Shown one piece after another: positions 5,764 to 24,220 of a DNA stretch of 55,939 bases (position 1 is its first letter; every line of letters begins with the position of its first letter). Position numbers and translations under genes: made by a program. Under the pieces are notes generated by a model. The model did no database searches and had not been told where the DNA came from. It saw nothing but the letters and a program-made list of their open reading frames with translations. Origin of the DNA: a virus (lineage: Duplodnaviria > Heunggongvirae > Uroviricota > Caudoviricetes); IMG/VR virus record IMGVR_UViG_2698536620_000014; one strand, given 5' to 3'.

Positions 5764-5837
5764 GTTTTTCTCCTTAATTAAGGTTGAGCGAATACCTGCC
5801 ATTTCTGGCATAAATTCAGTTTCGAATAGTCAATTAA

Positions 5838-7159: not shown

Positions 7160-7311
7160 CTTACTGTGTGCTTCTCCAACCATCGGCGCGCACCAGTTTC
7201 GGTTTTAAATGTTTTGCTTTTGGTATACGTCATGGCAGTGAACGTTCCATCCTGGTTGGGGAACACGCCGCACACCAGGGATTCGTTGTTGCCGAGGTCG
7301 ATTTTTTGCAT
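7156..7311 (-). CDS. ydaF: YdaF-like small protein, 51 aa
   Basis: Not in track. Minus-strand ATG 7309-7311 to TAA 7156-7158: MQKIDLGNNESLVCGVFPNQDGTFTAMTYTKSKTFKTETGARRWLEKHTVS; convergent with sieB. Confidence 0.5.
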   Translation of the reverse strand: MQKIDLGNNESLVCGVFPNQDGTFTAMTYTKSKTFKTETGARRWLEKHTVS

Positions 7312-7321
7312 TTTGCGAATC

Positions 7322-7456
7322 TCACATCTTGTTGCTGTGTATAGCGACTTCTGCCTGCCAGAGATCCCAGTCGTTGCTGCGTAAAGCCTGCACAGCCTGG
7401 TTGTAAGTGATACCGCAACAATCCATCAAATACTGAACTACTTCGTAATGCACCAT
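7322..7456 (-). CDS. ydaG: YdaG-like small protein, 44 aa
   Basis: ATG at 7454-7456 preceded by GGGGAGAG; product MVHYEVVQYLMDCCGITYNQAVQALRSNDWDLWQAEVAIHSNKM. Confidence 0.55.
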   Translation of the reverse strand: MVHYEVVQYLMDCCGITYNQAVQALRSNDWDLWQAEVAIHSNKM

Positions 7457-7746
7457 CTTATCTCTCCCCTTAACGCCGGGTGGCGGAACTGAAACCTGCT
7501 GCACTGCAAAATCTGAACCCTGCCGTCATGTTCATACGCCTCGGGCTGGCTACTTAACCCCTGACCACTGCCTGGTAACTCGAAGTATTGCCCTGCGTTC
7601 TGTGGGGCGGGGTGGGTTGGTAGGTATATAATGTACTTTGTGTTCATTGATGTAAAGTACTATAAGTACATTTTGTGTGTAAAAAAATGAGATGGGATAA
7701 AGTGAAGCACAAACCCGGAGGGGGACGCTACCGGATTTATGCTGGT

Positions 7747-8184
7747 TTAAGAGGCTTTTTGTTTTTTCTTTCGTGCTAGCTCTTCGTAAATTGCATTGTA
7801 CTTCTGTTTTTTCTCCTCAAGAGTTTTTAAAAGTTCATCTGTCTCACTGTCAGGGAGCTCGTCCAGAAGGTCAATGATGATTTTTTGTCTTGGATTTAAC
7901 TCCTGATAGAAACGTACCTGTCCACTTTCTTCTGTATCCTCTCCCAAAAGATAGGTTGGTGTTGTTCCAATGAGTGTTGCTAATTCCCTTAATTTCTCTC
8001 GGCGAGGAATTGTTTCGCCATTAAACCATTTGCTAACCGCTTTTGGTGTTAATTTCATTCGACGGGCAATTTCTGCCTGCCTTCCATGTTGTTCATAACC
8101 AGCGTTTTCACAGGCTAGCGCAAGCCTACTGGCGAACTCTTTACGCGCTTTATCTTCATGAACCATAAGTTCAATGATATTCAC
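7747..8184 (-). CDS. racR: RacR prophage repressor (HTH, XRE-like)
   Basis: HTH-like segment GRQAEIARRMKLTPKAVSKWFNGETIP; divergent from ydaS-ydaT. Start uncertain: GTG 8184 or ATG 8166; an in-frame stop lies just upstream. Confidence 0.8.
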   Translation of the reverse strand: MNIIELMVHEDKARKEFASRLALACENAGYEQHGRQAEIARRMKLTPKAVSKWFNGETIPRREKLRELATLIGTTPTYLLGEDTEESGQVRFYQELNPRQKIIIDLLDELPDSETDELLKTLEEKKQKYNAIYEELARKKKQKAS

Positions 8185-8245
8185 TCTTGAATGTACTGTC
8201 AGTTCTGTTATAGCATGTACTCAAAGTTCACATTGTGAGGGTGAT
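8185..8245. promoter_or_regulatory. racR / ydaS divergent promoter-operator region
   Basis: 61-bp intergenic region between divergent racR and ydaS with repeated TGTACT motifs (aatgtactgtcag ... catgtactcaaag). Confidence 0.4.
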
Positions 8246-8500
8246 ATGAACCAGAAAACACTTGAAGATGTAATCAAAACTGTTCGCGTTTCTGTTGTGG
8301 CCGACGTTTGTGGTGTCAGCCAAAGAGCAATCTACAAATGGATGGATAACGGAAAATTGCCTCGCACAGAATATACCGGCGAAACAAATTACGCTGAAAA
8401 AATCGCTCATGCATCAAACGGATTATTTTCTGCTGATGTAATTTTAACTATTGGCAGAAATAAAACTACTACGAAAAAGCTGATGGGAGTTGATTCATGA
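8246..8500 (+). CDS. ydaS: YdaS-like HTH protein
   Basis: ATG at 8246 after GTGAGGGTGAT; product MNQKTLEDVIKTVRVSVVADVCGVSQRAIYKWMDNG... The track's upstream ATG at 8174 would overlap the racR start. Confidence 0.7.
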   Translation: MNQKTLEDVIKTVRVSVVADVCGVSQRAIYKWMDNGKLPRTEYTGETNYAEKIAHASNGLFSADVILTIGRNKTTTKKLMGVDS

Positions 8501-8919
8501 AAATCAAGCATGAGCACATCGAGTCAGTGTTGTTAGCCCTGGCAGCCGAAAAAGGGCAGGCATGGGTAGCCAATGCCATTACTGAAGAATATCTGCGCCA
8601 GGGGGGCGGCGAATTGCCCCTGGTACCAGGCAAGGACTGGAATAATCAGCAGAATATCTATCACCGTTGGTTGAAAGGTGAAACGAAAACGCAAAGAGAA
8701 AAAATTCAGAAGCTGATCCCAGCAATTCTGGCAATCCTTCCGCGCGAGCTGCGTCACCGACTCTGCATCTTCGATACCCTGGAACGCCGTGCATTACTGG
8801 CGGCGCAGGAAGCGTTAAGTACGGCAATTGATGCGCATGATGATGCAGTCCAAGCCGTTTACCGGAAAGCGCATTTCAGCGGCGGCGGGTCTTCCGACGA
8901 TTCTGTCATTGTTCATTAA
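8497..8919 (+). CDS. ydaT: YdaT-like protein, 140 aa
   Basis: 140-aa ORF coupled to ydaS by ATGA overlap; same size and position as K-12 YdaT. Confidence 0.8.
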   Translation: MKIKHEHIESVLLALAAEKGQAWVANAITEEYLRQGGGELPLVPGKDWNNQQNIYHRWLKGETKTQREKIQKLIPAILAILPRELRHRLCIFDTLERRALLAAQEALSTAIDAHDDAVQAVYRKAHFSGGGSSDDSVIVH

Positions 8920-8931
8920 GCAAAAGTTTCC

Positions 8932-9789
8932 ATGCTGTTTGTGCTTATTCTAAGCCACCGGGCAGCATCATACGGGGCAATTATGGCCGCATTACCATAC
9001 ATGCAACTGTACATAGCTGATTACCTGGCTGACACCATGCATTTGTCAGCAGAGGAGCATGGTGCGTATTTGTTGCTGATGTTCAATTACTGGCAAACAG
9101 GAAAGCCAATACCTAAAAACAGGCTGGCAAAAATTGCCCGTCTGACTAACGAGCGATGGGCTGATGTTGAACCATCCTTGCAGGAGTTTTTTTGCGATAA
9201 CGGCGAGGAATGGGTGCATCTTCGGATTGAGGAAGATCTGGCATCAGTCAGGGAAAAATTAACCAAAAAATCAGCCGCAGGAAAAGCATCTGTTCAGGCC
9301 AGAAGAAGCAGAAAGGAAGCAGATGTTCAAACAAAACAAGAGAGAAATTTAACAGGTGTTCAAACAGATGTTGAAGTGGTGTTTGAACATGATGTCAACA
9401 CAAAGGCAACTAATAAAGATACAGATAAAGATCTAAAAACAGATCCCCCCCTAAATCCCCCCCGGGGGAATCGAGGTGTCAAAAAGTTTGACCCTCTGGA
9501 TATTGCTTTGCCGAACTGGATTTCTGTCTCGCTTTGGCGTGAGTGGGTTGAATTTCGCCAGGCATTGCGAAAACCGATTCGAACGGAGCAGGGCGCTAAC
9601 GGGGCGATACGGGAGCTGGAAAAATTCCGCCAGCAGGGTTTTTCACCTGAGCAGGTGATTCGACACAGCATCGCCAATGAATACCAGGGCTTGTTCGCGC
9701 CGAAAGGTGTTCGACCTGAGACGTTACTCCGACAGGTTAACACCGTCTCGTTACCGGATAGTGCGATCCCGCCAGGCTTCAGGGGGTAA
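8932..9789 (+). CDS. ydaU: YdaU-like replication/primosomal protein, 285 aa
   Basis: 285-aa ORF directly upstream of the DnaC-like gene; position and size as Rac ydaU. Confidence 0.8.
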   Translation: MLFVLILSHRAASYGAIMAALPYMQLYIADYLADTMHLSAEEHGAYLLLMFNYWQTGKPIPKNRLAKIARLTNERWADVEPSLQEFFCDNGEEWVHLRIEEDLASVREKLTKKSAAGKASVQARRSRKEADVQTKQERNLTGVQTDVEVVFEHDVNTKATNKDTDKDLKTDPPLNPPRGNRGVKKFDPLDIALPNWISVSLWREWVEFRQALRKPIRTEQGANGAIRELEKFRQQGFSPEQVIRHSIANEYQGLFAPKGVRPETLLRQVNTVSLPDSAIPPGFRG

Positions 9790-9795
9790 CTGACC

Positions 9796-10542
9796 ATGAA
9801 AAATATTGCGACAGGCGACGTTCTTGAACGTATCCGCAGACTGGCCCCGTCACATGTAACCGCGCCATTCAAGACGGTAGCGGAGTGGCGCGAGTGGCAA
9901 CTTTCCGAAGGCCAGAAACGTTGTGAGGAGATCAACCGTCAGAATCGTCAGTTGCGGGTGGAAAAAATTCTGAATCGCTCTGGCATCCAGCCATTGCACC
10001 GCAAATGCTCGTTTTCGAATTACCAGGTGCAGAACGAAGCGCAGCGATACGCGTTGAGTCAGGCGAAATCCATCGCTGATGAACTGATGACCGGGTGTAC
10101 AAATTTTGCGTTCAGCGGAAAACCTGGTACCGGGAAGAACCACTTAGCGGCAGCTATCGGGAATCGCCTGCTGAAAGACGGTCAGACAGTGATTGTGGTT
10201 ACCGTGGCTGATGTTATGAGTGCCCTGCACGCCAGCTATGACGATGGGCAGTCAGGCGAAAAATTTTTGCGGGAACTATGCGAAGTGGATCTGCTGGTTC
10301 TTGATGAAATTGGCATTCAGCGCGAGACGAAAAACGAGCAGGTGGTGCTGCACCAGATTGTTGATCGCCGGACAGCGTCGATGCGCAGCGTGGGGATGCT
10401 GACAAACCTGAACTATGAGGCCATGAAAACATTGCTCGGCGAGCGGATTATGGATCGCATGACCATGAACGGCGGGCGATGGGTGAATTTTAACTGGGAG
10501 AGCTGGCGTCCGAATGTCGTCCAGCCAGGAATTGAGAAGTAA
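9796..10542 (+). CDS. ydaV: DnaC-like replication ATPase (helicase loader), 248 aa
   Basis: Walker [18 protein letters not shown] and Walker B LLVLDEIG in the translation. Confidence 0.85.
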
Positions 10543-10564
10543 TTTTTACCGGGAGGAAATTTTT

Positions 10565-11326
10565 ATGGAGACTGTTTTTGACGCACTGAAAGCAATGGGA
10601 AAAGCCACATCCATAGAACTTGCTGCGCGACTTGATATCAGTCGTGAAGAAGTGCTGAACGAACTATGGGAACTGAAAAAAGCTGGTTTCGTTGATAAAA
10701 GCGCGTACACCTGGCGTGTGGCTGATAACAACGTTCAGCAGGAACAGCCAATGCAGGCAGAACTGCCGGAAGAAACCACCACGGCAACTGTAGTGAAAAT
10801 CTCAGAGTGCGATTTAACCGCGACGATTGAACAACGCGGACCACAAACGGCGGATGAACTGGCTACGCTGTTCGGTACAACATCCCGCAAAGTTGCTTCA
10901 ACGCTGGCAATGGCAATCAGCAAAGGACGCCTGATTCGCGTAAACCAGAACAGTAAATTTCGTTACTGCATGCCGGGCGATAATTTACCAGCAGAGCCGA
11001 AAGCTGCATCGGTAGCGGAAACTGATGGTAAAGCCTTTCCTCAGCCAGCCGGTGTTGCGTTACCAGTACAGGAAGCGGCAACACAGGAAGATATTAAAAC
11101 AGAAACTGTGGCGGACATTGTGCAGTCGCTGCCATCGTTTACTGAAACGCAAGCGGATGACCTAGTTTTACCATCGCTGCATATGGCAAACCGCGAACTG
11201 CGTCGGGCGAAAAATCATGTCCAGAAGTGGGAGCGAGTCTGCGCCGCGCTGCGGGAGCTGAACAAGCACCGGGATATTGTCCGACAGATTGTCGATTCCT
11301 CCAGTCGTATTGTGTCGGAAAAGTGA
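10565..11326 (+). CDS. YdaW-like protein with N-terminal winged-helix-like region, 253 aa
   Basis: ATG 10565 preceded by GGGAGG; product [46 protein letters not shown]... Appears full-length here. Confidence 0.6.
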
Positions 11327-11341
11327 TTGCCGGAGGCGCTT

Positions 11342-11758
11342 ATGGCAAAAGTTTTTACACAGGAAGAGCGTGAAAAAATTAAGGAGCAGGTTGTTGAGTT
11401 GGTACGCCAGAGTGGGCGCGAGACGTTAAGGCAACTGGAGGCCAAGACAGGTGCGACAAGATATCTGATGAGCATTCTTGCCAGAGAGTTGGTTGCCAGT
11501 GGCGATGTATACAACTCTGGCTATGGGTTATTCCCGTCTGAACAGGCTCGTAAGGATTGGAAAAACGCCCGCAAAAAACTATCCAGGGCAAAGGTGAAAA
11601 AAACGGTTGTGGTTGATCCTGACCTTATCTGGTCATTACCAGACGGAGAAATACGCCGCTATGACAGGCGTCAGAACATAATCTGTCGCGAGTGCCGGAA
11701 GAGTGAAGTTATGAAACGTGTACTGGCATTTTATCAAGGAAATCTTCGGTATTTATAG
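11342..11758 (+). CDS. Hypothetical basic protein, 138 aa
   Basis: ATG 11342 after GGAGG; C-terminal CxxC (CRECRK). Confidence 0.55.
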   Translation: MAKVFTQEEREKIKEQVVELVRQSGRETLRQLEAKTGATRYLMSILARELVASGDVYNSGYGLFPSEQARKDWKNARKKLSRAKVKKTVVVDPDLIWSLPDGEIRRYDRRQNIICRECRKSEVMKRVLAFYQGNLRYL

Positions 11759-11896
11759 ACGTTACTAGATCAAAGAGCATTAGTTCATATGTAAATTGAC
11801 ATTTTTCTGGCACAGGGGAGAGCTAGCGTGGTTGTCCGCTTTGTGCCAATAGCGGACATTGCTGGCTCATGGTATGTTAGTTTAAGGAGGCAGGTT

Positions 11897-12919
11897 ATGC
11901 CCTGTATTTCGCTGTGGTATAATAGTTGCGCAATTGATACAAGGGAGCGTTACATCGTGAAAATTGTTTTCGAGGTTAATGGAAAGAAAGTTCCACTAAA
12001 ATCTTTAAAATACATAAGCAAAAAAGATCAACTCGAAGTAATGAAAAACTGGTTCTTTGAAAACTTTGAAGATCCGGCAAATGCTTGTCCGTATGAAAGT
12101 AGAGAAGGTGGCTATGCTTACATATATGGCGGGCCGTATGATGCGAGCGAAGAACTACAATCCATCTTCGGTCAATATGTTAAATCTGAGTATATTGAGG
12201 AATTAGTAGATGAATTACAAACACAATGTTTTGACTGGTCTGGAAACTCAAATAATATAGATGATTGGTACGATGATGATATCTACGACGCTGTAACGTC
12301 TTCCGGTAATCCGTATTTAAAATTCATTGATAATATCGATAAAATAAAAAAACTTGCAAAAGATAAAACTGAACAACAGCAAAAAAACCACTTGCTTAGT
12401 TTGCTCTACACGAATGTTATTACAGCTTTGGAAACGCTTTATGTTGAGCTATTCATTAATTCTATAGAGAAAGATGATGTCTACATAGCCAATTGTATAG
12501 AAAAAGGTAAGACTGAATTTAAAGTAAGCAAAGATATTGCTGCGTTGCCTTTCAAGGGTGAACCCATCGAGAAAATTAGGGGAGAGCTAATCAGGTCAAT
12601 CAAGGAACACTTGATCAGTGCAAGCTGGCATAGCACTAAAAAGGTAATCGACCGCTATGAAGCTACATTCGATATAAAAGTACAAAAAGACTGTCCGATA
12701 GAAGCTATTGAATTGGCAACCCTCAATCGAAATCACTTAGTGCATCGTGGTGGAAAGGATAAAGAAGGGAACCTCGTAGTGATTACAGACCAGGATCTTG
12801 AAACGCTGATTGAAAATGCATCGAACCTGGCAATTATGCTCTACAACAGTTTAAATGTAGCAACGAATAAAACCACCATTTTGCAACCAGATGACAAACC
12901 GTTCATTCATGAATTTTAA
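11897..12919 (+). CDS. Hypothetical protein with C-terminal HEPN-like R-x4-H motif (candidate RNase toxin); AT-rich
   Basis: ATG 11897 with AAGGAGG 6 nt upstream; alternative in-frame GTG 11957 with AAGGGAG. C-terminal ATLNRNHLVHRGG matches the HEPN RNxxxH signature. Coding region visibly AT-rich against GC-richer flanks. Confidence 0.6.
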   Translation: MPCISLWYNSCAIDTRERYIVKIVFEVNGKKVPLKSLKYISKKDQLEVMKNWFFENFEDPANACPYESREGGYAYIYGGPYDASEELQSIFGQYVKSEYIEELVDELQTQCFDWSGNSNNIDDWYDDDIYDAVTSSGNPYLKFIDNIDKIKKLAKDKTEQQQKNHLLSLLYTNVITALETLYVELFINSIEKDDVYIANCIEKGKTEFKVSKDIAALPFKGEPIEKIRGELIRSIKEHLISASWHSTKKVIDRYEATFDIKVQKDCPIEAIELATLNRNHLVHRGGKDKEGNLVVITDQDLETLIENASNLAIMLYNSLNVATNKTTILQPDDKPFIHEF

Positions 12920-12934
12920 TAGCGCAGGTCATAC

Positions 12935-13936
12935 ATGGATATTCGCACACGAAAGACAAAATTTTTAGAGTCGTTAGATTCAACTGAAGTGATACGCAAA
13001 GCAGTAAGTCTCGCTATAGATTGCATTATTGATAATCATAATAGTAATGAAGATACCCCCTTAGTTATTACCAGCTATGATGATCTCTGTAGAATCCAGG
13101 TGCTAAATTATGTACAGGAGTTTTGCGAAGCTGCATTCCCTGATATGGATGAATATTACTTTAGTCCTAACATACTTCGCATCAACGGCAAGACTAGTGA
13201 AGAAGCTTGTATTAACTTAATTAAACTCTTAAGAAGTACAAAAGGCATGCTATTCTGGTCCGATGCCCCATCGTGGTTCGCTAGCCTCCCCGACGGATTA
13301 TTCCATGTTGTTAACATTGATCAAAAAATCGTTACTCGCGGCCTTAATAAGAAAAACTCTAAGCCGACAATAATCAATAAAGATTACAGTGTAGATACAC
13401 TACTATCAGAGCTATTTTTGAATGGCGCACACATGGAGCAACCCAACGTACACAACGTTTCTGAGGGAAACATGAAGTTCTATGATGAATGCCATGCTGG
13501 ATTAATCAGACCAATACCCGCTCCAATAGGCGCGTCATACGATGAAGAGATCACAATTAATTCTCCAGATTGGCAAAAGCTCGCGTGTGTAGCTTTACGC
13601 CGCTATCAGTCGAAGGAATGTCATGACGGAATGCAATGGGATACAACCGATCATGGTTGGACTGATGTAATCGCGTATCCATTCGTCGAAGAAATACAAT
13701 CAATGGATAATAGTGGTTATCGACAATGTTTAGTTGGGCTGGTCACAATAAACAATTCAAATGCAAATTCTCCGTACCTATCTACCGTTTGGATACATCC
13801 ATTTTATCGCAGGAGAGGGTTATTAAGTAAGTTATGGCCAAAATTACAAGAGTTATATGGAAGTAACTTCGAAATTGAGCGACCTAATGAAAATATGAAA
13901 GCATTTCTGAAAAGTGCGAAACACGCAGATTACTAA
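12935..13936 (+). CDS. Hypothetical protein with C-terminal GNAT-like acetyltransferase motif; AT-rich
   Basis: 333-aa ORF 15 nt after the previous gene; C-terminal VWIHPFYRRRGLLSKLWPKL resembles GNAT motif A; N-terminal about 200 aa has no motif I recognise. Confidence 0.6.
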   Translation: MDIRTRKTKFLESLDSTEVIRKAVSLAIDCIIDNHNSNEDTPLVITSYDDLCRIQVLNYVQEFCEAAFPDMDEYYFSPNILRINGKTSEEACINLIKLLRSTKGMLFWSDAPSWFASLPDGLFHVVNIDQKIVTRGLNKKNSKPTIINKDYSVDTLLSELFLNGAHMEQPNVHNVSEGNMKFYDECHAGLIRPIPAPIGASYDEEITINSPDWQKLACVALRRYQSKECHDGMQWDTTDHGWTDVIAYPFVEEIQSMDNSGYRQCLVGLVTINNSNANSPYLSTVWIHPFYRRRGLLSKLWPKLQELYGSNFEIERPNENMKAFLKSAKHADY

Positions 13937-14556
13937 TTTATGAATCAGTCTGTGGAGTTAGGGTTGGTGTGAACAAGTAGGGTAAGAGCCTCAACGTGAT
14001 GCTATGCCGACCTGCTCCCTGAGAATTCACACAGAAGGCTGCTAGCAATGTCTGCAGATCGCTCAAAGCGGACTAAAATGTTGGCTTGTTTCTGACTTAG
14101 AGCATTTAAGGAAGTGCTGGTGGTGACTGGTTGTTGTGTTCCATTTCTACAGAATAAAATCACAGAAACTATACCCAATAGTTGTATTGAATCACTGACG
14201 AGACAGCCTCATATTTATCAGGACTGGTGTGCGTCTAATACAGGGGGTTGTCGTGCTGGTTCTCAAATGTGCGCTGGCTATTGCGGCTGTAATGGCAATT
14301 TATTGTCTTGCTGTTGTTCTTATGGAGCGGCTTTCTGATTGATTACATACTGGCTAGAAAAAAGGTGTTACCTTGGTTTATCTTTGTCCGGCAAGGTGCG
14401 CTCATTAATCTTAAGTAAATTTATTGCTCAAGTATTCAGATTACTTCTTATGGTTGAAGTCTCCTGTCAATGTAGAACCAATATATTTACAAAAATGAGA
14501 CCCGTCGGGGATAGCCCTGCCGGGTCTGACTGTTAAAGCATTTTTAATATGATCAT

Positions 14557-14895
14557 CTATTTTTTGGTGCTATAGACTTTTTCGCCCGAAAAGTCTGGAG
14601 CGACCCAAAAGTTAATATTAAACTGAGCATCATCGCTTAGTTCAACACGGTGCCAGTATTGTGGTGGGCTTGTTGCAAAAGCGCCAGCATTAATGACTAC
14701 TTTTATCTCCGGTTCAGTAGCATTCTCATCAGTAAAACCATAATATGTTACAGTGCCTTCCATTACGCACAACTGCCCAAAAACACCTGCTGCTGTATTA
14801 TGATGTGTTAATAACGCTGAAGGTACGTTCTCTTTTGTGAAGAACGGAGTTGAGCGTTTGATTACCCAATCTTTAGGAATTCTCTTGTGTGTCAT
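14557..14895 (-). CDS. Hypothetical protein, 112 aa
   Basis: ATG at 14893-14895 preceded by GGAGGAGGTGG; convergent with the AT-rich cassette; hairpin plus T-run downstream on the minus strand (about 14495-14525). Confidence 0.6.
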   Translation of the reverse strand: MTHKRIPKDWVIKRSTPFFTKENVPSALLTHHNTAAGVFGQLCVMEGTVTYYGFTDENATEPEIKVVINAGAFATSPPQYWHRVELSDDAQFNINFWVAPDFSGEKVYSTKK

Positions 14896-15708
14896 AACCA
14901 CCTCCTCCAAAACATGCATTAAAAATGCATCTTTTGGAGGGTTATGTCAAGCTGTTATGAAACACATAATTGATATGTTGATTAGAGGAGAAGATAGAAT
15001 AAATATGGTTGTTTTTCGTATAACTATTTGTTTTACTTTTAGTTTATGCATTCTGTGTGTTAGGAATAAGTTATTAAAGTTTAATCAAAAAATCTCGATG
15101 TAGTCCACATAGATTACTGTTACTGAACCTTATTGTGTGTATTAGTTGTGTTCTGAAATTTCAGCTTAATTATTTATGATGTATTTTTTAACGATAAATA
15201 TTTTCCCAGGATACCTTTACTGTGTATATAAATAAATTATATACGCATAAATAATGTAAAGGCGTCCTTTTAGATATATCTTATCAAATGTTAATGACTT
15301 GAGTGGGAAATATGATTCCAGCAACTTATCATGTGGCTACTTTATAAAAATAATGCCCATATAAAACAACAAGCGAAAAGGATTACGGATAAAAAAGGAG
15401 CGAGATGTGCGAACTTGTTATTTTCCATGTTTAACCACCTTAAATAATTGATGATGACGGGATGATTGCATCTGTAATGCTTTTATTGAAATGTTATGAT
15501 AAAAAAGAACTTTTGCATAACATTAAAATGTAATTTATCTAATCGTTTTTAATAATAAGTGTCGTATTTCTATCCTTGTACCAGCTATTTGATATGTAGT
15601 GTTTGTTCATGCTATGTGGGGCTTTACACCATAGCCAGTTTATTTATACTTTATTCGTCAGCCTGAACAACTGGCATCTGCTGCGCTGCGCCATCGAGAG
15701 ATTGAGAA

Positions 15709-16308
15709 ATGGCGCATATACAACTGGTCAAACAAACCTCTTCTGGTTTACTTCTCCCGGCGACGCCGGAGAGTTGCGATTTTCTGCATCAAATCAAAAT
15801 AGGTGAGTGGATACACGCAGACTTTAAGCGTGTGCGTAACTACGCATTCCACAAGCGTTTTTTCAAACTCCTGCAACTGGGATTCGATTACTGGACTCCG
15901 GTCGGTGGGGCGATCACGCCTCGCGAACGAGAACTGCTGTCTGGTTTCGTTGATTACCTGTGCGAATCAGTTGGTCGGGAACACACGCCAGCCCTGAGTG
16001 ATGCCGCAGAGCAATACCTTAACACCGTTGCGACTCGTAGAACCCGGGATACGGCGTTGCTAAAGTCGTTTGAGGCTTTCCGCGAGTGGGTAACCATTCA
16101 GGCCGGATTTTACACCGAGCATATTTATCCGGACGGTAGCCGTGGGCGTCGGGCAAAATCCATCGCTTTTGCGAATATGGACGAAGTCGAGTTTCAGCAG
16201 GTTTATAAATCTGTACTGAATGTGCTGTGGAACTGGATTCTGTTCCGTAAATTCTCCTCTCAGGAGGAAGTTGAAAATGTGGCCGCACAACTACTGGAGT
16301 TTGCGTAA
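15709..16308 (+). CDS. Lambdoid nin-region protein, 199 aa
   Basis: 199-aa ORF in the position of nin-region genes; translationally coupled to the next gene (ATGG overlap at 16308). Confidence 0.6.
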   Translation: MAHIQLVKQTSSGLLLPATPESCDFLHQIKIGEWIHADFKRVRNYAFHKRFFKLLQLGFDYWTPVGGAITPRERELLSGFVDYLCESVGREHTPALSDAAEQYLNTVATRRTRDTALLKSFEAFREWVTIQAGFYTEHIYPDGSRGRRAKSIAFANMDEVEFQQVYKSVLNVLWNWILFRKFSSQEEVENVAAQLLEFA

Positions 16309-16598
16309 TGGTGAATTTACGTAAAGCGGCTAAAGGCCAGATGTGCCAGATCAGAATCCCTGGCTACTGCAATCACAATCCCGAAACCTCTGTGCTGGCG
16401 CATTACAGGCTGGCGGGGACGTGCGGAACAGCGACAAAACCACATGATATGCAGGCGGCGATAGCCTGTAGCTCATGCCACGATCTAATCGACGGGCGGG
16501 TAAAAACCAGCGATTACACCAAAGAAGAATTGCGCCTGATGCATGCTGAAGGGGTTTTTCGCACACAAGAAATCTGGAGAAAGAAAGGTCATTTATGA
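16308..16598 (+). CDS. YbcO-like Cys-rich nin-region protein (putative nuclease), 96 aa
   Basis: 96 aa with CQIRIPGYCNHNPETSVLAHY...CSSCHDLIDG metal-binding-like Cys/His pattern; same size as DLP12 YbcO. Confidence 0.65.
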   Translation: MVNLRKAAKGQMCQIRIPGYCNHNPETSVLAHYRLAGTCGTATKPHDMQAAIACSSCHDLIDGRVKTSDYTKEELRLMHAEGVFRTQEIWRKKGHL

Positions 16599-17137
16599 TT
16601 TACCCAACGAATACAGGAAAAAGCGGAGAACACCTTCGCCTCACCACGCTGGAAAGTGTCTGGATTCAGGGAAAACTACGTATGTGGGGGCGCTGGTCGT
16701 ATATTGGCGGTGGCAGGTCAGGGAATATGTTCAATCAGTTGTTGGCATCCAAAAAACTGACGAAAACAGCCATTAATGAAGCCCTGCGCAGAATGAAAAA
16801 AGCGGGAATAGAGAAAGCTGAGCTGGAAGCGTTTTTGCGAGAGATGATCAACGGCAAGCAAAAGAGCTGGCTGGCGCATTGTACTGATGCAGAGGCGTTA
16901 TGTATTGATCGAGTCATAAGTGAGGTGCTGGCAGAGCATCCAGGATTGATTTGCATTCTCCGGCAACGCTATGAAGGGCGGGGGATGACTAAGCGCAAAA
17001 TGGCTGAATTGCTAAATGATGCACACCCAGAGTGGTGTTTTAGCACATGCGAAAAACGGATTGCTAATTGGTTAGCTGTTGCTGAGTATGCCCTATATAT
17101 TCCCATGCGTGAATCATTTGCTGAGAAAATGGCTTGA
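16595..17137 (+). CDS. Q-like late-gene antiterminator, 180 aa
   Basis: Last gene before the lysis region; contains an RWG-W motif (LRMWGRWSY) like Q-family antiterminators; followed by a terminator 80 bp downstream. Confidence 0.55.
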   Translation: MIYPTNTGKSGEHLRLTTLESVWIQGKLRMWGRWSYIGGGRSGNMFNQLLASKKLTKTAINEALRRMKKAGIEKAELEAFLREMINGKQKSWLAHCTDAEALCIDRVISEVLAEHPGLICILRQRYEGRGMTKRKMAELLNDAHPEWCFSTCEKRIANWLAVAEYALYIPMRESFAEKMA

Positions 17138-17215
17138 TTTCTTACGTATAAACTGCTTCAATTTTGCTATGCTTCGCAAAGCTGTATCGCGAGGCGGATT
17201 GCAGACATGGACATC

Positions 17216-17245
17216 GTAAAAAAACCGCTTAATGCGGTTTTTTTA
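17216..17245 (+). terminator. Rho-independent terminator downstream of Q (tR'-like)
   Basis: aaaccgc-ttaat-gcggttt hairpin (17222-17240) followed by T-run to 17244. Confidence 0.6.
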
Positions 17246-17564
17246 CGTCAGGAAAGCAGGGGAGAATGCTGCTAGTTGGGCAACTGGTCTTTCTGCTCCA
17301 AATTATAACAGAGACCAGTTATAGTTTCGGTGCTGTGTTTTTTTTACAATATTGTGATAACACATTGCTGGCGGGAGTTTTGATATTTCTTGGCAGGGGC
17401 TGATGATGCGTTATCCTGATGTCGTCAACTCATATAAAATGAGATGAGAGATCATTGCAGGGTGGTTTGTAATTCGCTGTTTAGCGGGACAATATGTTGT
17501 CTGATACAAGACACCCGACGCCTCAGATTACTATAATAAAGACGAAGCATCCTTTGTATTGACC

Positions 17565-17590
17565 AACCGCCTGTTTAGGCGGTTCTTTTT
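17565..17590 (+). terminator. Hairpin plus T-run (second terminator-like element in the Q-lysis intergenic region)
   Basis: aaccgcc-tgttta-ggcggtt stem-loop followed by cttttt; a TATAAT hexamer lies about 30 nt upstream (17532-17537). Confidence 0.4.
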
Positions 17591-18122
17591 GGGCTGGTTT
17601 ATTGTATGCCAAATGATTATTAAAAAGGTTGTGTTAATAACAAGATCCGAAATAATATGCCTGCATATTTTTATCTTGCTTATATTCTGCATATTGTGCA
17701 TAGCAGGCTCATCCCTGCAATCAAAACTGTATGATGAGTATTTTTTGTTTTCCTTTTTTCCAGTCATCTGATGATGACCTGCTTCTTTTTAATCCGGATC
17801 GACATCAGTTTTTTAAGATAATTCCTGCGAGTTATATGCATAAATGCCACAAACTCCGCATTTTATGTGGTTGGGAGTTGCCGGGCGCGCAGTGAGTTTG
17901 CTAAGAAAACTCCTGCATGGTGAATCCCCCTGTGCGGTGGGGTGATACCATTAACCTTTTCTGTCGCCGACAGGTATCACGAACATTTTGTTCACCGGGA
18001 GGCACCCGGCACCATGCACTTCAATAGATTCTCTCCACATTATGGATATTCTTTCAGAATATCCCACGCAGACTTTGTGTAAATGTTAACAAATGTGCGT
18101 TTTATTTGATCTGATTCGCTGT

Positions 18123-18152
18123 TTGAGCGTCCAAAACAACGGTATATATAAT
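18123..18152 (+). promoter_or_regulatory. Putative sigma70 promoter for the lipoprotein moron
   Basis: TTGAGC (18123-18128), 18-nt spacer, TATAAT (18147-18152); about 30 nt upstream of the RBS and ATG at 18182. Confidence 0.4.
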
Positions 18153-18181
18153 CCTTTACTATATGACATATGTGAGGAAAA

Positions 18182-18610
18182 ATGGGTTTTCGTAGCGCAT
18201 CAATTCTTACGTTGATTATTAGTGGGATTATTATCGGGTGCACTGATGCTGTATCGACAAATTATCATGACCGTACATCATATTACTCCGATAAAGCAAT
18301 AGAGACACAGTATGTGAGTTCATCTGAACGTACTTCTGATGTTAGTGAGGATATCCGTCTGTATGCCCATCAAATCAAGAGCGCCATCGAAAAACAGTTC
18401 GGGGATGCGAGTAAGTATTCAGGAAAAGAGTGTACACTGAGAATGCATATGGCCCCGAATGGCCTTCTACTGGAGGTTAAAAGAGAAAGTGGAGACCTCG
18501 ATTTATGTCGTGAAGCGATGAATGCGATAAAGAATGCTGATATACCTGCCCCCCCTTCGCCGGAAGTATATAAAGTATTTCAAAATGGGGTGCTGGATTT
18601 TAAACCCTGA
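18182..18610 (+). CDS. Lipoprotein with TolA C-terminal (domain III)-like fold, 142 aa
   Basis: Lipobox IIGC near the N-terminus; C-terminal YAHQIKSAIEKQFGDASKYSGKECTLRMHMAPNGLLLEVKRESGDLDLCREAMNAIKNADIPAPPSPEVYKVFQNGVLDFKP closely parallels the C-terminal domain of E. coli TolA as I recall it. Confidence 0.75.
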   Translation: MGFRSASILTLIISGIIIGCTDAVSTNYHDRTSYYSDKAIETQYVSSSERTSDVSEDIRLYAHQIKSAIEKQFGDASKYSGKECTLRMHMAPNGLLLEVKRESGDLDLCREAMNAIKNADIPAPPSPEVYKVFQNGVLDFKP

Positions 18611-18760
18611 TATTTATTGTTTTGTAATAAACGGTTTCGGCTTAGGTTTGTTCTGACACAGCTACGGCACTGAGCTAAATTTAGCGGATAGTCAGCTCTG
18701 AGCCAGTGGCGGACGTAACAACTACTATTGCTGAGATTTTAATGGATTGAGGAGCAAGAA

Positions 18761-19156
18761 GTGGGATTAAAGAAAATCGTTATGTTGACTTTTTGGGTCG
18801 GTTTTGTTGCGGGATGCACACCTTTACACCCTTCAGATTGCCACAAAACTACTGCTACAGGTAGTTGCAGTTCAGGACGCTGGGATGATCAGGATGAATG
18901 GGGGGCGCAAGCGCGGGGAATCAGAGCTGCAATTAATGCCAAACTTGATGAGCCGCATAACTGGAAAGGGAAAAAATGCAGGTTGCATATGGAATTCTCT
19001 CAGGATGGCACGGCGTTAAAAATATCTACCAGTAACGGTGATAAAGCCTATTGCGAAGCGATAAAGTCCGCAGCTCATAAAGCCAAATTTCCGGCCTTCA
19101 ACAATCCGGAAGTCTACAGAGATTTTCAGAAATCTGGCTTTGACATGCGAGGTTAG
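18761..19156 (+). CDS. Second, diverged TolA-domain-III-like lipoprotein, 131 aa
   Basis: GTG start after GAGGAG; lipobox VAGC; C-terminal KCRLHMEFSQDGTALKISTSNGDKAYCEAIKSAAHKAKFPAFNNPEVYRDFQ is paralogous to the preceding gene. Confidence 0.7.
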   Translation: MGLKKIVMLTFWVGFVAGCTPLHPSDCHKTTATGSCSSGRWDDQDEWGAQARGIRAAINAKLDEPHNWKGKKCRLHMEFSQDGTALKISTSNGDKAYCEAIKSAAHKAKFPAFNNPEVYRDFQKSGFDMRG

Positions 19157-19407
19157 CTCTTCAATTACTATATCTCATTCATAGCAAACTGACAGATTTG
19201 ATGATGTTCTATATACGAAACCTGTGATGTCAAGTCTGAGCTAATACAAATAAACATAATATCAGAGAAATACATTTTATTAGCTCGCTACGGCGAGCTT
19301 TTTATATTGCATCGTCTCCAGCATATATATCAATTAAGGCTCTGATTGATGTGTCTGAAAGCCTACACATAATAACTATGCCATCCGTTCCGTGCGGAGG
19401 TGAGGCT

Positions 19408-19623
19408 ATGAAATCCATGGACAAAATTTCAACAGGCATTGCCTACGGCACCTCCGCAGGCAGTGCTGGCTACTGGTTTTTACAGTTGCTCGATAGAGTA
19501 ACTCCGTCACAGTGGGCTGCAATCGGTGTGCTGGGTAGTCTGGTATTTGGCCTGCTGACGTACCTGACAAACCTTTATTTCAAGATTAAAGAAGATAAGC
19601 GCAAGGCTGCGAGAGGTGAATAA
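19408..19623 (+). CDS. Class II holin (phage 21 S-like pinholin), 71 aa, dual-start motif
   Basis: ATG 19408 after GGAGGTGAGG; [14 protein letters not shown]... with second Met at codon 4; two TM segments; stop overlaps the endolysin start. Confidence 0.85.
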
Positions 19624-20099
19624 TGCCTCCATCATTACGAAAAGTCGTTGCTGCTGCTATTGGTGGCGGAGCAATTGCTATAGCATCAGTGTTAATCACT
19701 GGCCCAAGTGGTAACGATGGTCTGGAAGGTGTCAGCTACATACCATACAAAGATATTGTTGGTGTATGGACTGTATGTCACGGGCATACAGGAAAAGACA
19801 TCATGCTCGGTAAAACGTATACCAAAGCAGAATGCAAAACACTCTTGAATAAAGACCTTGCCACTGTCGCCAGACAAATTAACCCGTACATCAAAGTCGA
19901 TATACCGGAAACAACGCGCGGCGCTCTTTACTCATTCGTTTACAACGTGGGTGCTGGCAATTTCAGAACATCGACGCTTCTTCGCAAAATAAACCAGGGC
20001 GATATCAAAGGCGCATGTGATCAGCTACGTCGCTGGACATATGCTGGCGGTAAGCAATGGAAAGGTCTCATGACTCGTCGTGAGATTGAGCGTGAAATC
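19623..20099 (+). CDS. SAR endolysin (lysozyme, phage 21 R-like); 3' end lost in assembly gap
   Basis: N-terminal signal-anchor-release segment ([23 protein letters not shown]) followed by a lysozyme-like core; ORF runs into the N stretch at 20100. Confidence 0.8.
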
Positions 20100-20342
20100 N
20101 NNNNNNNNNNNNNNNNNNNNNNNNNNNNNNNNNNNNNNNNNNNNNNNNNNNNNNNNNNNNNNNNNNNNNNNNNNNNNNNNNNNNNNNNNNNNNNNNNNNN
20201 NNNNNNNNNNNNNNNNNNNNNNNNNNNNNNNNNNNNNNNNNNNNNNNNNNNNNNNNNNNNNNNNNNNNNNNNNNNNNNNNNNNNNNNNNNNNNNNNNNNN
20301 NNNNNNNNNNNNNNNNNNNNNNNNNNNNNNNNNNNNNNNNNN
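20100..20342. other. Assembly gap (243 N)
   Basis: Run of N; removes the endolysin 3' end and the Rz/Rz1 5' ends. Confidence 0.99.
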
Positions 20343-20344
20343 CG

Positions 20345-20584
20345 AAAGCTGAAAATGATGCTCTGCGTGATGATGTTGCCGCTGGTCGTCGTCGGTTGCA
20401 CATCAAAGCAGTCTGTCAGTCAGTGCGTGAAGCCACCACCGCCTCCGGCGTGGATAATGCAGCCTCCCCCCGACTGGCAGACACCGCTGAACGGGATTAT
20501 TTCACCCTCCGGGAACGACTGGTAATGATGCAGGCCCAACTTGAAGGTGCTCAGCAATACATAACCGAGCAGTGTTTAAAGTAA
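20345..20584 (+). CDS. Rz i-spanin, C-terminal part (5' end in gap)
   Basis: Frame after the gap reads KAENDALRDDVAAGRRRLHIKAVCQSVREATTASGVDNAASPRLADTAERDYFTLRERLVMMQAQLEGAQQYITEQCLK, lambda Rz-like. Confidence 0.75.
   Translation, partial: KAENDALRDDVAAGRRRLHIKAVCQSVREATTASGVDNAASPRLADTAERDYFTLRERLVMMQAQLEGAQQYITEQCLK
20355..20525 (+). CDS. Rz1 o-spanin lipoprotein embedded in Rz (+1 frame)
   Basis: MMLCVMMLPLVVVGCTSKQ... with lipobox VVGC and proline-rich tail; true start may lie a few codons upstream inside the gap. Confidence 0.7.
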   Translation: MMLCVMMLPLVVVGCTSKQSVSQCVKPPPPPAWIMQPPPDWQTPLNGIISPSGNDW

Positions 20585-20721
20585 AATCTTAACTACAATA
20601 TGATTCATTTTGATGATTGTTTCATAAGGAACAGTGAAGTAAGATCTAAGAGGAGTTAAATTTTATACAGTATAATCATAATATTGCAGCAAGGTGGTTA
20701 TAATTGAAAGAATATTTAGAT

Positions 20722-22179
20722 ATGAATACATCTCATGTAAGAGTTGTTACTCATATGTGTGGGTTCCTGGTTTGGCTCTATAGTCTTTCAATGTTGCCAC
20801 CAATGGTTGTAGCATTGTTTTATAAAGAAAAAAGCCTGTTCGTTTTCTTTATAACTTTCGTTATATTTTTTTGCATTGGTGGCGGAGCGTGGTATACAAC
20901 TAAGAAATCTGGCATTCAATTACGTACCCGTGATGGGTTTATTATAATTGTAATGTTTTGGATTTTGTTTTCTGTTATTAGTGCATTCCCTTTATGGATT
21001 GACTCAGAACTTAATTTAACGTTCATTGATGCTCTGTTTGAAGGGGTTTCTGGAATAACAACAACAGGAGCAACTGTAATTGATGATGTTAGTTCATTAC
21101 CTCGGGCATATTTGTACTATCGGTCACAGTTAAATTTTATAGGTGGTTTAGGAGTTATTGTTCTGGCGGTTGCAGTATTGCCATTATTGGGTATTGGTGG
21201 TGCAAAGCTTTATCAGTCAGAAATGCCGGGGCCATTTAAGGATGACAAACTCACTCCCCGCCTGGCCGATACGTCACGGACACTGTGGATAACTTATTCT
21301 TTATTAGGTATTGCTTGTATTGTCTGTTATAGACTTGCAGGAATGCCTTTGTTTGATGCTATTTGTCACGGGATTTCCACAGTTTCGCTTGGTGGTTTCT
21401 CAACTCATAGCGAGAGTATCGGATATTTTAATAACTATTTGGTTGAGCTGGTGGCTGGTTCTTTTTCCCTGCTATCGGCTTTCAACTTCACTCTTTGGTA
21501 TATTGTTATTAGCAGAAAAACGATAAAACCTTTAATCAGAGATATTGAACTTCGTTTCTTTCTGTTAATAGCCTTAGGGGTGATCATTGTTACCTCTTTC
21601 CAGGTCTGGCATATAGGTATGTATGACTTGCATGGAAGTTTTATTCATTCGTTTTTTCTTGCCAGCTCCATGCTCACTGATAATGGTTTAGCTACGCAGG
21701 ATTATGCAAACTGGCCCACGCACACGATAGTGTTTTTGCTGTTGTCAAGTTTCTTTGGGGGATGTATAGGTTCAACCTGTGGTGGAATTAAGTCACTTCG
21801 ATTTCTTATACTTTTCAAACAAAGCAAACACGAGATAAATCAGCTTTCTCATCCCAGAGCGTTGTTGAGTGTAAATGTAGGAGGGAAGATAGTTACAGAT
21901 CGTGTAATGAGGTCTGTATGGAGTTTCTTTTTTCTTTATACTCTCTTCACGGTGTTTTTTATACTGGTGTTAAATGGTATGGGATATGATTTTCTTACAT
22001 CATTTGCAACAGTGGCTGCATGTATTAATAATATGGGATTAGGTTTTGGGGCTACTGCATCGTCATTCGGAGTGCTTAATGACATTGCAAAATATTTAAT
22101 GTGCATAGCTATGATTCTTGGTCGCCTTGAAATTTATCCTGTTATTATATTGTTTTCAGGTTTTTTTTGGCGCTCCTAA
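20722..22179 (+). CDS. trkG: TrkG potassium uptake protein (TrkH/TrkG family), 485 aa
   Basis: ATG 20722 (MNTSHVRVVTHMCGF...); polytopic membrane protein; same length as the Rac-encoded TrkG of K-12; AT-rich. Confidence 0.9.
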   Translation: MNTSHVRVVTHMCGFLVWLYSLSMLPPMVVALFYKEKSLFVFFITFVIFFCIGGGAWYTTKKSGIQLRTRDGFIIIVMFWILFSVISAFPLWIDSELNLTFIDALFEGVSGITTTGATVIDDVSSLPRAYLYYRSQLNFIGGLGVIVLAVAVLPLLGIGGAKLYQSEMPGPFKDDKLTPRLADTSRTLWITYSLLGIACIVCYRLAGMPLFDAICHGISTVSLGGFSTHSESIGYFNNYLVELVAGSFSLLSAFNFTLWYIVISRKTIKPLIRDIELRFFLLIALGVIIVTSFQVWHIGMYDLHGSFIHSFFLASSMLTDNGLATQDYANWPTHTIVFLLLSSFFGGCIGSTCGGIKSLRFLILFKQSKHEINQLSHPRALLSVNVGGKIVTDRVMRSVWSFFFLYTLFTVFFILVLNGMGYDFLTSFATVAACINNMGLGFGATASSFGVLNDIAKYLMCIAMILGRLEIYPVIILFSGFFWRS

Positions 22180-22316
22180 TATATGGCTGATTTATAATTG
22201 TGAGTTTAATATTATGTTGACTCACTCATTGATCCAATACCTAACTTTACCAGCAACACCTCCGCCCCCAGTAGCACTGGCTGCTGGGGTGCGTTTTATT
22301 CATAAAGCAAGGCTGT

Positions 22317-23105
22317 ATGAGCGAGAAATTAAAGATAGTCTATCGCCCATTACAAGAATTGTCACCGTATGCGCACAACGCCAGGACGCACAGTACTGAG
22401 CAGGTGGCACAACTGGTAGAAAGTATTAAGCAATTCGGCTGGACTAATCCGGTGCTGATTGACGAAAAGGGCGAAATTATTGCGGGTCACGGTCGTGTTA
22501 TGGCGGCTGAAATGCTCAAAATGGATTCTGTTCCGGTCATTGTTCTGTCTGGCCTGACGGATGAGCAGAAAAAGGCGTACCGCCTGGCAGATAATCGCCT
22601 GCCGATGAATGCTGGCTGGGATGAAGATCTGTTGCGGATGGAGCTGTCGGACCTAATCAATGCTGATTTTGATGTCTCCCTGACAGGCTTCATCCCGGCA
22701 GAAATTGATGAACTGTTGACGGATGTTTTGCCCGGTACAGGAAATGAGGAGGAGCCGTATACGACGAAAATTGATACGCCTGTTTATGAGCCGTCAGGCG
22801 GTAAACCGGATATCAGTGAACTGTACGACGATACGAAAACTCAGGAGCTGATCAGCCGGATACGTTCGGCGTCCCTTGATCCTGATATTGAGAAATTCCT
22901 CCTGTGTGCAGCAGAACGTCACACGGTGTTTAATTTCAGCAGAATTGCGGACTATTACGCTCATGCCCCCGCTGAAATTCAGTGCCTTTTCGAGGAGTCG
23001 GCGCTGGTGATCATTGATTATCAGCAGGCTATTGAAAATGGATTTGTCCGAATGACGCAGCGCATGGTGGAGATCATGCATGGCGGGGAGGAGGAATATG
23101 CGTGA
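22317..23105 (+). CDS. ParB-like nuclease domain protein, 262 aa (full-length counterpart of the short K-12 ynaK)
   Basis: N-terminal LKIVYRPLQELSPYAHNARTHS...IIAGHGRVMAA is a ParB/Srx-type motif. Confidence 0.75.
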   Translation: MSEKLKIVYRPLQELSPYAHNARTHSTEQVAQLVESIKQFGWTNPVLIDEKGEIIAGHGRVMAAEMLKMDSVPVIVLSGLTDEQKKAYRLADNRLPMNAGWDEDLLRMELSDLINADFDVSLTGFIPAEIDELLTDVLPGTGNEEEPYTTKIDTPVYEPSGGKPDISELYDDTKTQELISRIRSASLDPDIEKFLLCAAERHTVFNFSRIADYYAHAPAEIQCLFEESALVIIDYQQAIENGFVRMTQRMVEIMHGGEEEYA

Positions 23106-24217: not shown

Positions 24218-24220
24218 CTG

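Follow-up and report, generated by a model that had tools for sequence, protein, structure and literature searches.

Does the virus record IMGVR_UViG_2698536620_000014 (IMG/VR) carry, at positions 10565–20584, the part of the Rac prophage that has been lost from E. coli K-12, or does it belong to another lambdoid lineage with no more than the Rac early region in common? The whole 55,939-nt stretch of this record, referred to here as the window, was aligned by blastn to positions 1408000–1438000 of the K-12 MG1655 genome, where Rac occupies 1411899–1434958 (NC_000913.3). Proteins were compared with Pfam, PHROG and PDB, RNA with Rfam and defence genes with PADLOC. A previous reading of the sequence alone (the sequence-only reading) had proposed a Rac-family prophage that retains the region deleted in K-12 from ydaW through Rz. 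The limits it gave are exact: position 10565 is the ATG of ydaW and 20584 the final base of the Rz stop codon. The element appears to be a Rac-lineage lambdoid prophage of full size, and positions 10565–20584 its delayed-early/late-regulatory segment together with the lysis cassette, both lost by K-12; this is considered to be about 90% probable.

Alignment of the whole element to K-12 Rac had been set beforehand as the test of this proposal. It shows the same lineage, as early genes and late remnants are colinear at window positions 1–7622, 8491–11014, 20343–22570, 34128–35887, 44302–44513, 46560–49852 and 50027–50777, with 94.5%–99.9% identity. Positions 1–7622 correspond to intR through ydaG (98.7% over 7,623 bp) and positions 8491–11014 to ydaT through the middle of ydaW (98.3% over 2,524 bp). 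The gene content from int through ydaV had been said to match K-12; this holds for positions 1–7622 and from 8491 on, but not for positions 7623–8490, which are unmatched. Here racR/ydaS are replaced, and the repressor and cro-like genes are unrelated to those of K-12 beyond the helix-turn-helix (HTH). Positions 11015 to ~20137 are missing in K-12, and the match resumes from Rz1/trkG, as had been predicted: positions 20343–22570 (Rz1, trkG and the 5′ part of ynaK) display 99.6% identity. The region 22571–34127 is again missing in K-12, 34128–35887 (ydaY, ynaA) is present with 99.9% identity, 35888–44301 is missing, and beyond 44301 lomR, stfR and tfaR are found with 94.5%–96.7% identity. An extra match to K-12 Rac (94.5%) at 44509–46243 is second to that at 46560–49852. 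The late markers Rz/Rz1, trkG, ynaK, ydaY, ynaA, lomR, stfR and tfaR are in the K-12 order, in blocks of 99.6%, 99.9%, 96.7%, 96.7% and 94.9% identity. The segment 10565–20584 itself has 98.3%–99.6% identity to K-12 immediately to its left and right, and its interior is unmatched.

At the base level, K-12 Rac can be derived from the element by three deletions of 9,123, 11,557 and ~8,370 bp (~29 kb in total), with 2 bp of microhomology at each of the three junctions. In a single illegitimate event, deletion 1 (9,123 bp, left breakpoint after position 11014) joins ydaW codon ~150 to Rz codon ~8 at a shared TA. Its right end lies inside a run of N in the window and was placed via the near-identical copy in NCTC10444, where K-12 resumes at position 29474 of the locus (L001). 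Deletion 2 (11,557 bp, 22571–34127) fuses ynaK at codon ~85 with the tail-chaperone gene ydaY in its 3′ part, at a shared AA, and deletion 3 (~8,370 bp, 35888–44301) joins the tape measure gene to lom at a shared CA. The ydaW–Rz gap that had been proposed is real, but it is one of three deletions in K-12 relative to the element. The K-12 YdaW protein (b1361) consists of 150 genuine residues followed by 36 residues of out-of-frame Rz, and K-12 rzpR is missing the first seven codons only; the fusion or truncated fragments in K-12 are ydaW′-′Rz, ynaK′-′ydaY and ynaA′-′lomR. Because K-12 has fused or truncated open reading frames where those of the element are intact, the junctions are read as footprints of deletion in K-12 and not as insertions in the element. 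Similarly, because of the colinear 94.5%–99.9% matches, K-12 ynaK, ydaY, ynaA, lomR, stfR and tfaR are read as pieces of the element's late genes. K-12 differs further by an IS5 insertion in lom, by the exchanged immunity genes and by exchanged DNA to the right of tfaR.

Two other origins of this arrangement have to be weighed. A different lambdoid lineage, sharing the Rac early region only through mosaic exchange, would be in keeping with the mosaic nature of lambdoid phages, with the exchanged immunity genes, and with the example of Rac-SA53, which shares backbone genes only (83%–96% identity) and has another lysis cassette. However, all the K-12 late remnants are colinear with the element at the identities given above, and all K-12 junctions map within intact genes of the element. 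The colinear late remnants therefore exclude a separate lineage with a common early region only, which is considered very improbable. The K-12 arrangement could also be ancestral, the 9-kb segment having been inserted into the element or gained by recombination. That lambdoid phages can in general acquire modules speaks for this and nothing else does, whereas the 150 real codons of K-12 ydaW with their out-of-frame Rz extension, an Rz that is short by the first 7 codons only, ynaK and ynaA as 5′ fragments of longer genes and junctions that share only 2 bp all speak against it. In addition, complete genomes have the undeleted junction twice as often as that of K-12. An ancestral K-12 form is thus regarded as extremely improbable.

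Several observations weigh against the assignment to a full-size Rac prophage with lambdoid late control. The window opens exactly at the intR stop codon; attL and ttcA lie outside, and no Rac attR is present in the window. The RacR/YdaS pair was not found: blastn gives no DNA match to K-12 over 7623–8490, and by BLASTP the proteins resemble RacR and YdaS within the HTH motif only (12/33 and 6/18 identities). From position 46545 to its end, the window has 99.3% identity to the right end of a dusA-integrated lambdoid prophage and not to Rac. An N gap in the window (20100–20342, 243 N) hides the last 7 codons of the endolysin gene R, the ~75 first codons of Rz and the Rz1 start codon. The DUF1133 protein (16595–17137, plus strand), which matches PF06576 (E = 3e-107) and the “Q-like” family phrog_753 (E = 2e-79), gives 26.1 bits with the Pfam Q model PF06530, where the cut-off is 26. 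A relationship to the structurally solved Q proteins was also considered and was set aside, as there is no PDB sequence match; from its family annotation and gene position, the protein is a predicted antiterminator. Lastly, late promoter- and terminator-type consensus sites are no commoner in the region than in shuffled sequence.

For the preferred reading, i.e. a Rac prophage that has kept what K-12 deleted, the content of the segment is informative. All genes that the sequence-only reading had named here are present in the Pfam, PHROG and PDB comparisons: a full-length ydaW, nin genes, a Q-like gene, lipoprotein morons, a pinholin, a signal-anchor-release (SAR) endolysin and Rz. On the plus strand, ydaW (10565–11326) is full length and encodes 253 amino acids with a winged-helix-like N-terminus and DUF1627 (PF07789, E = 2e-100, profile positions 1–155 of 155). 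It is followed by a DUF977/LygF-like gene at 11342–11758 (PF06163, E = 3e-31; phrog_142, E = 1e-46), which PHROG terms a “Ren-like exclusion protein”; the gene at this position is annotated as lygF in Rac-SA53 and MN652886. Ahead of the DUF1133 gene lie a DUF1367 gene at 15709–16308 (irsA; PHROG “NinB/Orf-like”; PF07105, E = 6e-98) and the YbcO nuclease gene at 16308–16598 (PF07102, E = 5e-45), also on the plus strand.

Between these two groups of genes, positions 11759–15708 form a block with a GC content of 37.6%, versus 49% in the flanks. The block carries a plus strand cargo gene at 11957–12919 with HEPN_RES_NTD1 and RiboL-PSP-type HEPN domains, a predicted RNase; its protein has the four-helix fold and the conserved Rx4-6H motif of HEPN proteins. 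A second plus strand cargo gene (12935–13936) encodes a 333-aa protein with a GNAT acetyltransferase fold at its C-terminus and an N-terminal half of unknown fold. A DUF1971 (YeaR/TehB-C-like) cargo gene is on the minus strand at 14557–14895 (PF09313, E = 2e-26). PADLOC gave no match for either the HEPN or the GNAT gene. The HEPN–GNAT pair recurs with an identical 15-bp spacer in an Aeromonas mobilisable island. An obligate toxin-antitoxin pair was considered for these two genes; the idea is weakened by distant homologues that are solitary in integrase, prophage-end and defence-island contexts. The gene-poor, low-GC stretch of 1.8 kb at 13937–15708 contains a 37-codon open reading frame (14229–14342) that would encode a very hydrophobic peptide, MRLIQGVVVLVLKCALAIAAVMAIYCLAVVLMERLSD. 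It lies roughly at the hok/mok position of Rac-SA53 and MN652886 and has no Rfam or Pfam match. A search for other RNA elements in this stretch and 3′ of Q yielded, even at a relaxed Rfam threshold, a single element, an STnc100-family small RNA.

The region downstream of Q contains a promoter-like site (AAGACA-18-TATAAT, 17508–17537) and a strong intrinsic terminator (17565–17590), both on the plus strand and detected by consensus scan and sequence reading. The terminator hairpin is at about +20 of the promoter-like site, and from the position of the pair ~400 bp 3′ of Q, 17508–17590 is a candidate PR′/tR′. Just past the Q stop codon, at 17218–17245, is another hairpin, bordered by runs of A and T. 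The STnc100-family element is at 17885–18071 on the plus strand (Rfam RF02076, 86.6 bits; gathering score 47). Two plus strand lipoprotein genes of the moron type follow, both with a TolA C-terminal domain (domain III): one at 18182–18610 (PF06519, E = 2e-23; lipobox IIGC) and the other at 18761–19156 (PF06519, E = 1e-14; lipobox VAGC). In the consensus scan they are flanked by a promoter-like site (18123–18152) and a terminator (19282–19299) on the same strand, and a promoter-like site and terminator of their own are the usual anatomy of morons. PGAP annotates the first TolA-domain gene as a tolA pseudogene in NCTC10444, yet the open reading frame has a start codon, a signal peptide and a lipobox. 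It may be speculated that the TolA-domain lipoproteins serve as decoys for filamentous phages or for colicins that depend on Tol.

The lysis cassette, on the plus strand as well, begins with the pinholin gene S at 19408–19623 (PF04971, E = 2e-35, profile positions 1–63 of 64), which has dual starts at M1 and M4 (MKSMDK). The SAR endolysin gene R extends from 19623 to ~20120 (PF00959, E = 2e-45; PDB entries 3HDE, E = 3e-110, and 4ZPU, E = 9e-111). Across all 165 residues the R protein matches 3HDE, the SAR endolysin of phage 21, and it has 162/165 residues identical to K-12 RrrD (4ZPU); its translation shows a G/A-rich N-terminal SAR helix and residues E35, D44 and T50. Rz is at ~20120–20584, with an embedded Rz1 that ends at 20525 (PF03245, E = 4e-53, scored on the NCTC10444 sequence as a proxy). 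The window allows the last 62 codons of Rz and almost the whole of Rz1 (lipobox VVGC, proline-rich) to be read, and the parts of R, Rz and Rz1 that fall in the gap are intact in NCTC10444, which is 99.95% identical.

A complete late morphogenesis module had been predicted 3′ of trkG, and every protein of the module is full length relative to PHROG or Pfam profiles; a search for inactivating mutations showed none in any readable late gene. All genes of this part are on the plus strand. The trkG potassium transporter gene (20704–22179) is cargo with a GC content of 37.7% (PF02386, E = 1e-144; 99.6% to K-12). It is followed, from 22317, by a full-length ynaK that encodes a 262-aa ParB_N-domain protein (PF02195), and by a TAGT (TET-associated)-family glycosyltransferase gene at 23080–24030 (PF20691, E = 4e-34); phrog_620 and phrog_842 are matched by the pair. 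K-12 ynaK has the first ~85 codons only, the left breakpoint of deletion 2 being at 22570. The ynaK gene overlaps the start of the glycosyltransferase gene, just 5′ of terS, and the two may be a DNA-modification or packaging-linked pair. The head/neck/tail module (24221–44164) encodes TerS, a headful-type TerL, portal, minor head protein, scaffold, a P22-family major capsid protein, adaptor and head closure proteins, and then tail completion, tail terminator, tube, chaperone (ydaY), tape measure (34953–38186), gpM/L/K/I/J-like proteins and the start of lom. Its identity to contigs where this J protein precedes lom-stf-tfa-sitDCBA-uspF is 99.94%. The 3′ part of lom and the first ~1.8 kb of a Rac-type side tail fibre gene follow at 44302–46543 (99.2% to lom-stf of the relative L008).

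At the other end of the element, the early-left arm (1–7622, minus strand; annotation from NCTC10444) consists of intR (1–1236), xisR, a DUF1187/rcbA-like gene, ralR, recT, recE (2786–5386), racC, ydaE, kilR, ydaF and ydaG. RalA small RNA (1557–1735; Rfam, 225 bits) and sieB (PF14163) are on the plus strand of this arm, and ralR/RalA-recT-recE-racC-ydaE-kilR and sieB together lie in the single 7,623-bp block of 98.7% identity to K-12. An HTH_3 repressor of 139 aa (Pfam; 7747–8166, minus strand) and a cro-like protein of 84 aa, recognized by HTH similarity (8246–8500, plus strand), come next. An exchanged immunity type is usual among lambdoid relatives. Beside the exchanged module ydaT is kept at 98% identity; ydaT (cII-like, PF06254), ydaU (DUF1376, PF07120) and ydaV (DnaC/IstB-like helicase loader, PF01695) are at 8497–10542 on the plus strand, with 98.3% identity to K-12, and the ydaT-ydaU-ydaV-ydaW replication block matches K-12 up to the deletion point inside ydaW.

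The 139-aa repressor shows HTH_3 only in Pfam, without an S24 peptidase domain. A scan of the Rac part of the window gave no perfect LexA box, the sole perfect ones being two at 53294–53337, upstream of the dinI-like gene in the dusA-prophage part. Because the repressor has no autocleavage domain, the element is probably not inducible by the SOS response. The description of the element as far less degraded and possibly inducible thus stands in its first half, the readable genes being intact; inducibility by mitomycin C is probably wrong. A parallel is Sp10 of O157 Sakai, whose repressor also lacks the peptidase motif. Sp10 is not induced by mitomycin C and gives no visible particles, but it circularises spontaneously and is transferred at low frequency to K-12, where it integrates at the Rac attR (Asadulghani et al., PMC2669165). 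By analogy, Sp10-like behaviour is the best guess for the element, and a mitomycin C test would probably be negative. GenBank phage records termed “vB_EcoS-...” were considered as evidence for inducibility and rejected: a preprint shows them to be PHASTER predictions from Illumina contigs, not virions.

The right end of the window requires separate treatment. There are three N runs, at 20100–20342 (243), 44165–44301 (137) and 46544 (1), where near-identical relatives have 240, 93 and 134 nt. Since the lengths disagree with those of the relatives, the runs are scaffold gaps; deliberate length-preserving masks are rejected (243 vs 240, 137 vs 93, 1 vs 134). The window is a draft-assembly scaffold of at least 4 contigs, with one break in Rz and two in lom. 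The 3′ end of lom and the first ~1.75 kb of stf are present twice (44494–46243 and 46546–48295) in copies that are 93.9% identical, the first being Rac-type and the second 99.3%–100% dusA-prophage-type. The first copy ends in an stf-to-lom junction at 46482/46483, with a 10-bp microhomology, GTCATTCAGC (46483–46492), just before the N at 46544. This exact junction had no match among genome contigs. In the dusA-prophage right end, lom-stf-tfa are followed, within 50909–55563, by a UG17-class defence-associated reverse transcriptase (PADLOC, E = 1e-158), a reverse transcriptase-associated SLATT protein, a dinI-like gene, a tyrosine integrase and dusA. A match to the Rfam family IS009 (224.8 bits) is located at 50555–50753, inside the tail fibre assembly gene. 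The closest Rac copies continue as lom-stf-tfa-sitDCBA-attR-uspF-ompN.

It is somewhat probable, therefore, given these differences in gap length and the two types of lom-stf copy, that the order from intR to tfa-reverse transcriptase-int-dusA is not one physical prophage, and that a dusA-prophage contig has been mis-joined to a Rac contig via the repeated lom/stf; the real prophage would then end in tfaR-(sitABCD)-attR like its closest relatives. The 12-kb arrangement is found in 0 of 5,426 complete genomes, the best matches spanning 9.9 kb, and six contigs with an identical J protein (among 25 read; 517 blocks indexed) either continue as lom-stf-tfa-sitDCBA-uspF-ompN (three) or end within lom/stf (three). 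The lom copies differ by few single-nucleotide polymorphisms, which would break a short-read assembly. On the other hand, a junction at a 10-bp microhomology is normally not invented by an assembler, and a genuine duplication, or genuine recombination of the two prophages, could lie behind it; a repeat-induced mis-join is favoured over such a rearrangement. A separate matter is whether the prophage, complete as it looks, is functionally cryptic, without DNA-damage induction and with few or no infectious particles. The chances of this are placed at about even. The repressor without S24 domain, the Rac part without a perfect LexA box, and Sp10, which with the same repressor defect is not mitomycin C-inducible and shows no visible particles, yet was transferred at low frequency (PMC2669165), all point in this direction. 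So does the ~52.5 kb between attL and attR in NCTC10444, cargo included, a length that may exceed the capacity of a T=7 headful capsid with terminal redundancy. Also, ten of the phage-collection records that match the late module with high coverage are “vB_EcoS” PHASTER predictions; the best match there is a different record, Salmonella phage SPF_0923. Against a cryptic state are the intact lysis, packaging and morphogenesis open reading frames, as far as readable, and the near-identical copies in diverse hosts.

These copies are numerous. By megablast against complete E. coli genomes, the segment 10565–20584 is found in 12 complete RefSeq genomes with 99.5%–100% identity and at least 92% of its length covered. 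Of 5,426 complete genomes, 691 have an intact S-R-Rz-trkG junction and 338 the K-12 deletion-1 junction. NCTC10444 aligns to window positions 1–20099 and 20343–40484 at 99.955%. Its RefSeq order is ttcA, intR xisR ralR recT recE racC ydaE kilR sieB ydaF ... ydaT ydaU ydaV, then DUF1627, DUF977, two hypothetical proteins, DUF1971, DUF1367, DUF1364, DUF1133 and two TolA-like genes, and finally essD, rrrD, “lysis protein”, trkG, ynaK and terminase through tail genes. In NCTC10444, O78 strain 3 and L008 (99.9%–100% identical), ttcA and the ttcC′ attR flank the element, and both attL and attR are present. The near-identical copies come from varied hosts (human, calf, pig, chicken, wastewater), which suggests recent mobility. 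The iron/manganese transporter genes sitABCD are found between tfaR and attR in the closest complete relatives (L003 8376–12227, L005 4642–8493, L008 17906–21757) and because of this placement are regarded as prophage cargo there. Full-sized Rac-like prophages have been described in a 2018 letter (Jobling, PMC5917428), the rac-like Sp10 and CP-933R have been placed at ttcA (Liu et al., PMC4632033), and Rac has been noted to be incomplete in K-12 yet intact in EDL933 (Ramisetty and Sudhakari, PMC6379469). A full-size Rac-like prophage is thus already known, and the element is common in sequenced E. coli and ordinary.

From homology and gene order, the following working can be proposed. Derepression would start rightward early transcription through the cro-like gene, ydaT, ydaU, ydaV, ydaW, DUF977, the NinB-like and YbcO genes and the DUF1133 Q-like gene. 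The Q-like protein would then let polymerase from the late promoter (candidate at 17508–17537) pass the terminator at 17565–17590, and read-through would express the phage-21-type lysis genes, trkG, ynaK and the glycosyltransferase, and the headful head and lambda-like tail genes. During lysis, the pinholin would depolarise the membrane, with release and activation of the SAR endolysin, and disruption of the outer membrane would fall to the Rz/Rz1 spanins. The cargo (morons), probably expressed from the prophage, would comprise the HEPN, GNAT and DUF1971 genes of the low-GC block and both genes for TolA-domain lipoproteins.

The element carries little weight as a discovery, as full-size Rac-like prophages at ttcA have been described and many RefSeq genomes have it annotated. 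What is useful is that the path by which K-12 Rac became cryptic can be stated exactly: three deletions, all at 2 bp of microhomology. The strange K-12 “genes” ydaW, rzpR, ynaK, ydaY, ynaA and lomR are fusion fragments because of these deletions, which helps in the interpretation of phenotypes at those K-12 loci or in the rebuilding of an active Rac. More tentatively, and with a probability well below even, the lineage, which is 98%–99.9% identical across all three K-12 deletion junctions, may be a living, undeleted progenitor form of K-12 Rac, and perhaps still an active temperate phage that excises spontaneously without SOS and moves trkG between E. coli strains (and sitABCD in relatives), its cargo perhaps adding uncatalogued anti-phage or host-modifying functions. 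The cargo meant in this suggestion is the standalone NTD1-HEPN(RiboL-PSP) protein, the GNAT fusion absent from PADLOC and the two TolA-domain-III lipoproteins. It is reasonable but unproven that the HEPN protein, the GNAT fusion, the TolA-domain lipoproteins, and the ParB-like protein with the glycosyltransferase are candidates for prophage-encoded exclusion or DNA modification.

Compared with known systems, the element is closest to K-12 Rac. Both have intR/xisR, ralR-RalA, recET, racC, kilR, sieB, ydaT-U-V, Rz1, trkG, stfR and tfaR, with the order kept and 94.5%–99.9% identity, and near-identical relatives of the element use the ttcA site with the same attL and attR. Unlike K-12 Rac, the element keeps the ~29 kb (ydaW 3′–Rz 5′, ynaK–ydaY, tape measure–lom) and has unrelated repressor and cro-like genes; it has no IS5 insertion and no pinR-ynaE to the right of tfa. 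The lysis cassette resembles that of phage 21 and DLP12 in its full-length PF04971 holin, dual start MKSM, R21-type SAR endolysin and Rz/Rz1; it differs in its Rac backbone and in the trkG gene that follows it, and part of R/Rz is unread in the window.

Rac-SA53 (KU052037; Jobling 2016, as cited in PMC5917428) and “Escherichia phage Rac” (MN652886) share the backbone, i.e. intR ... ydaT-U-V-W, lygF, variable cargo, irsA, ybcO and q, as well as a moron site 3′ of q that is followed by the lysis genes. The shared genes are however 83%–96% identical (irsA-ybcO-q, 83%). Rac-SA53 has the toxin genes eplBA and eltIIa where the element has the TolA-domain lipoprotein genes, hok/mok and rem in the cargo block instead of the HEPN, GNAT and DUF1971 genes, another holin/endolysin set, and, in the first 32 kb of its record, no trkG between the lysis and packaging genes. 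Its immunity type (dicA/dicC) is likewise not RacR/YdaS. Sp10 (O157:H7 Sakai) and CP-933R (EDL933), as published descriptions have them (PMC2669165, PMC4632033), resemble the element in their location at ttcA, ExoVIII/RecT-type recombination, DnaC-type loader, full morphogenesis gene set and repressor without a peptidase domain. According to those descriptions, their leftmost 8 kb alone are 99% identical to K-12 Rac, whereas the element matches the K-12 late remnants too.

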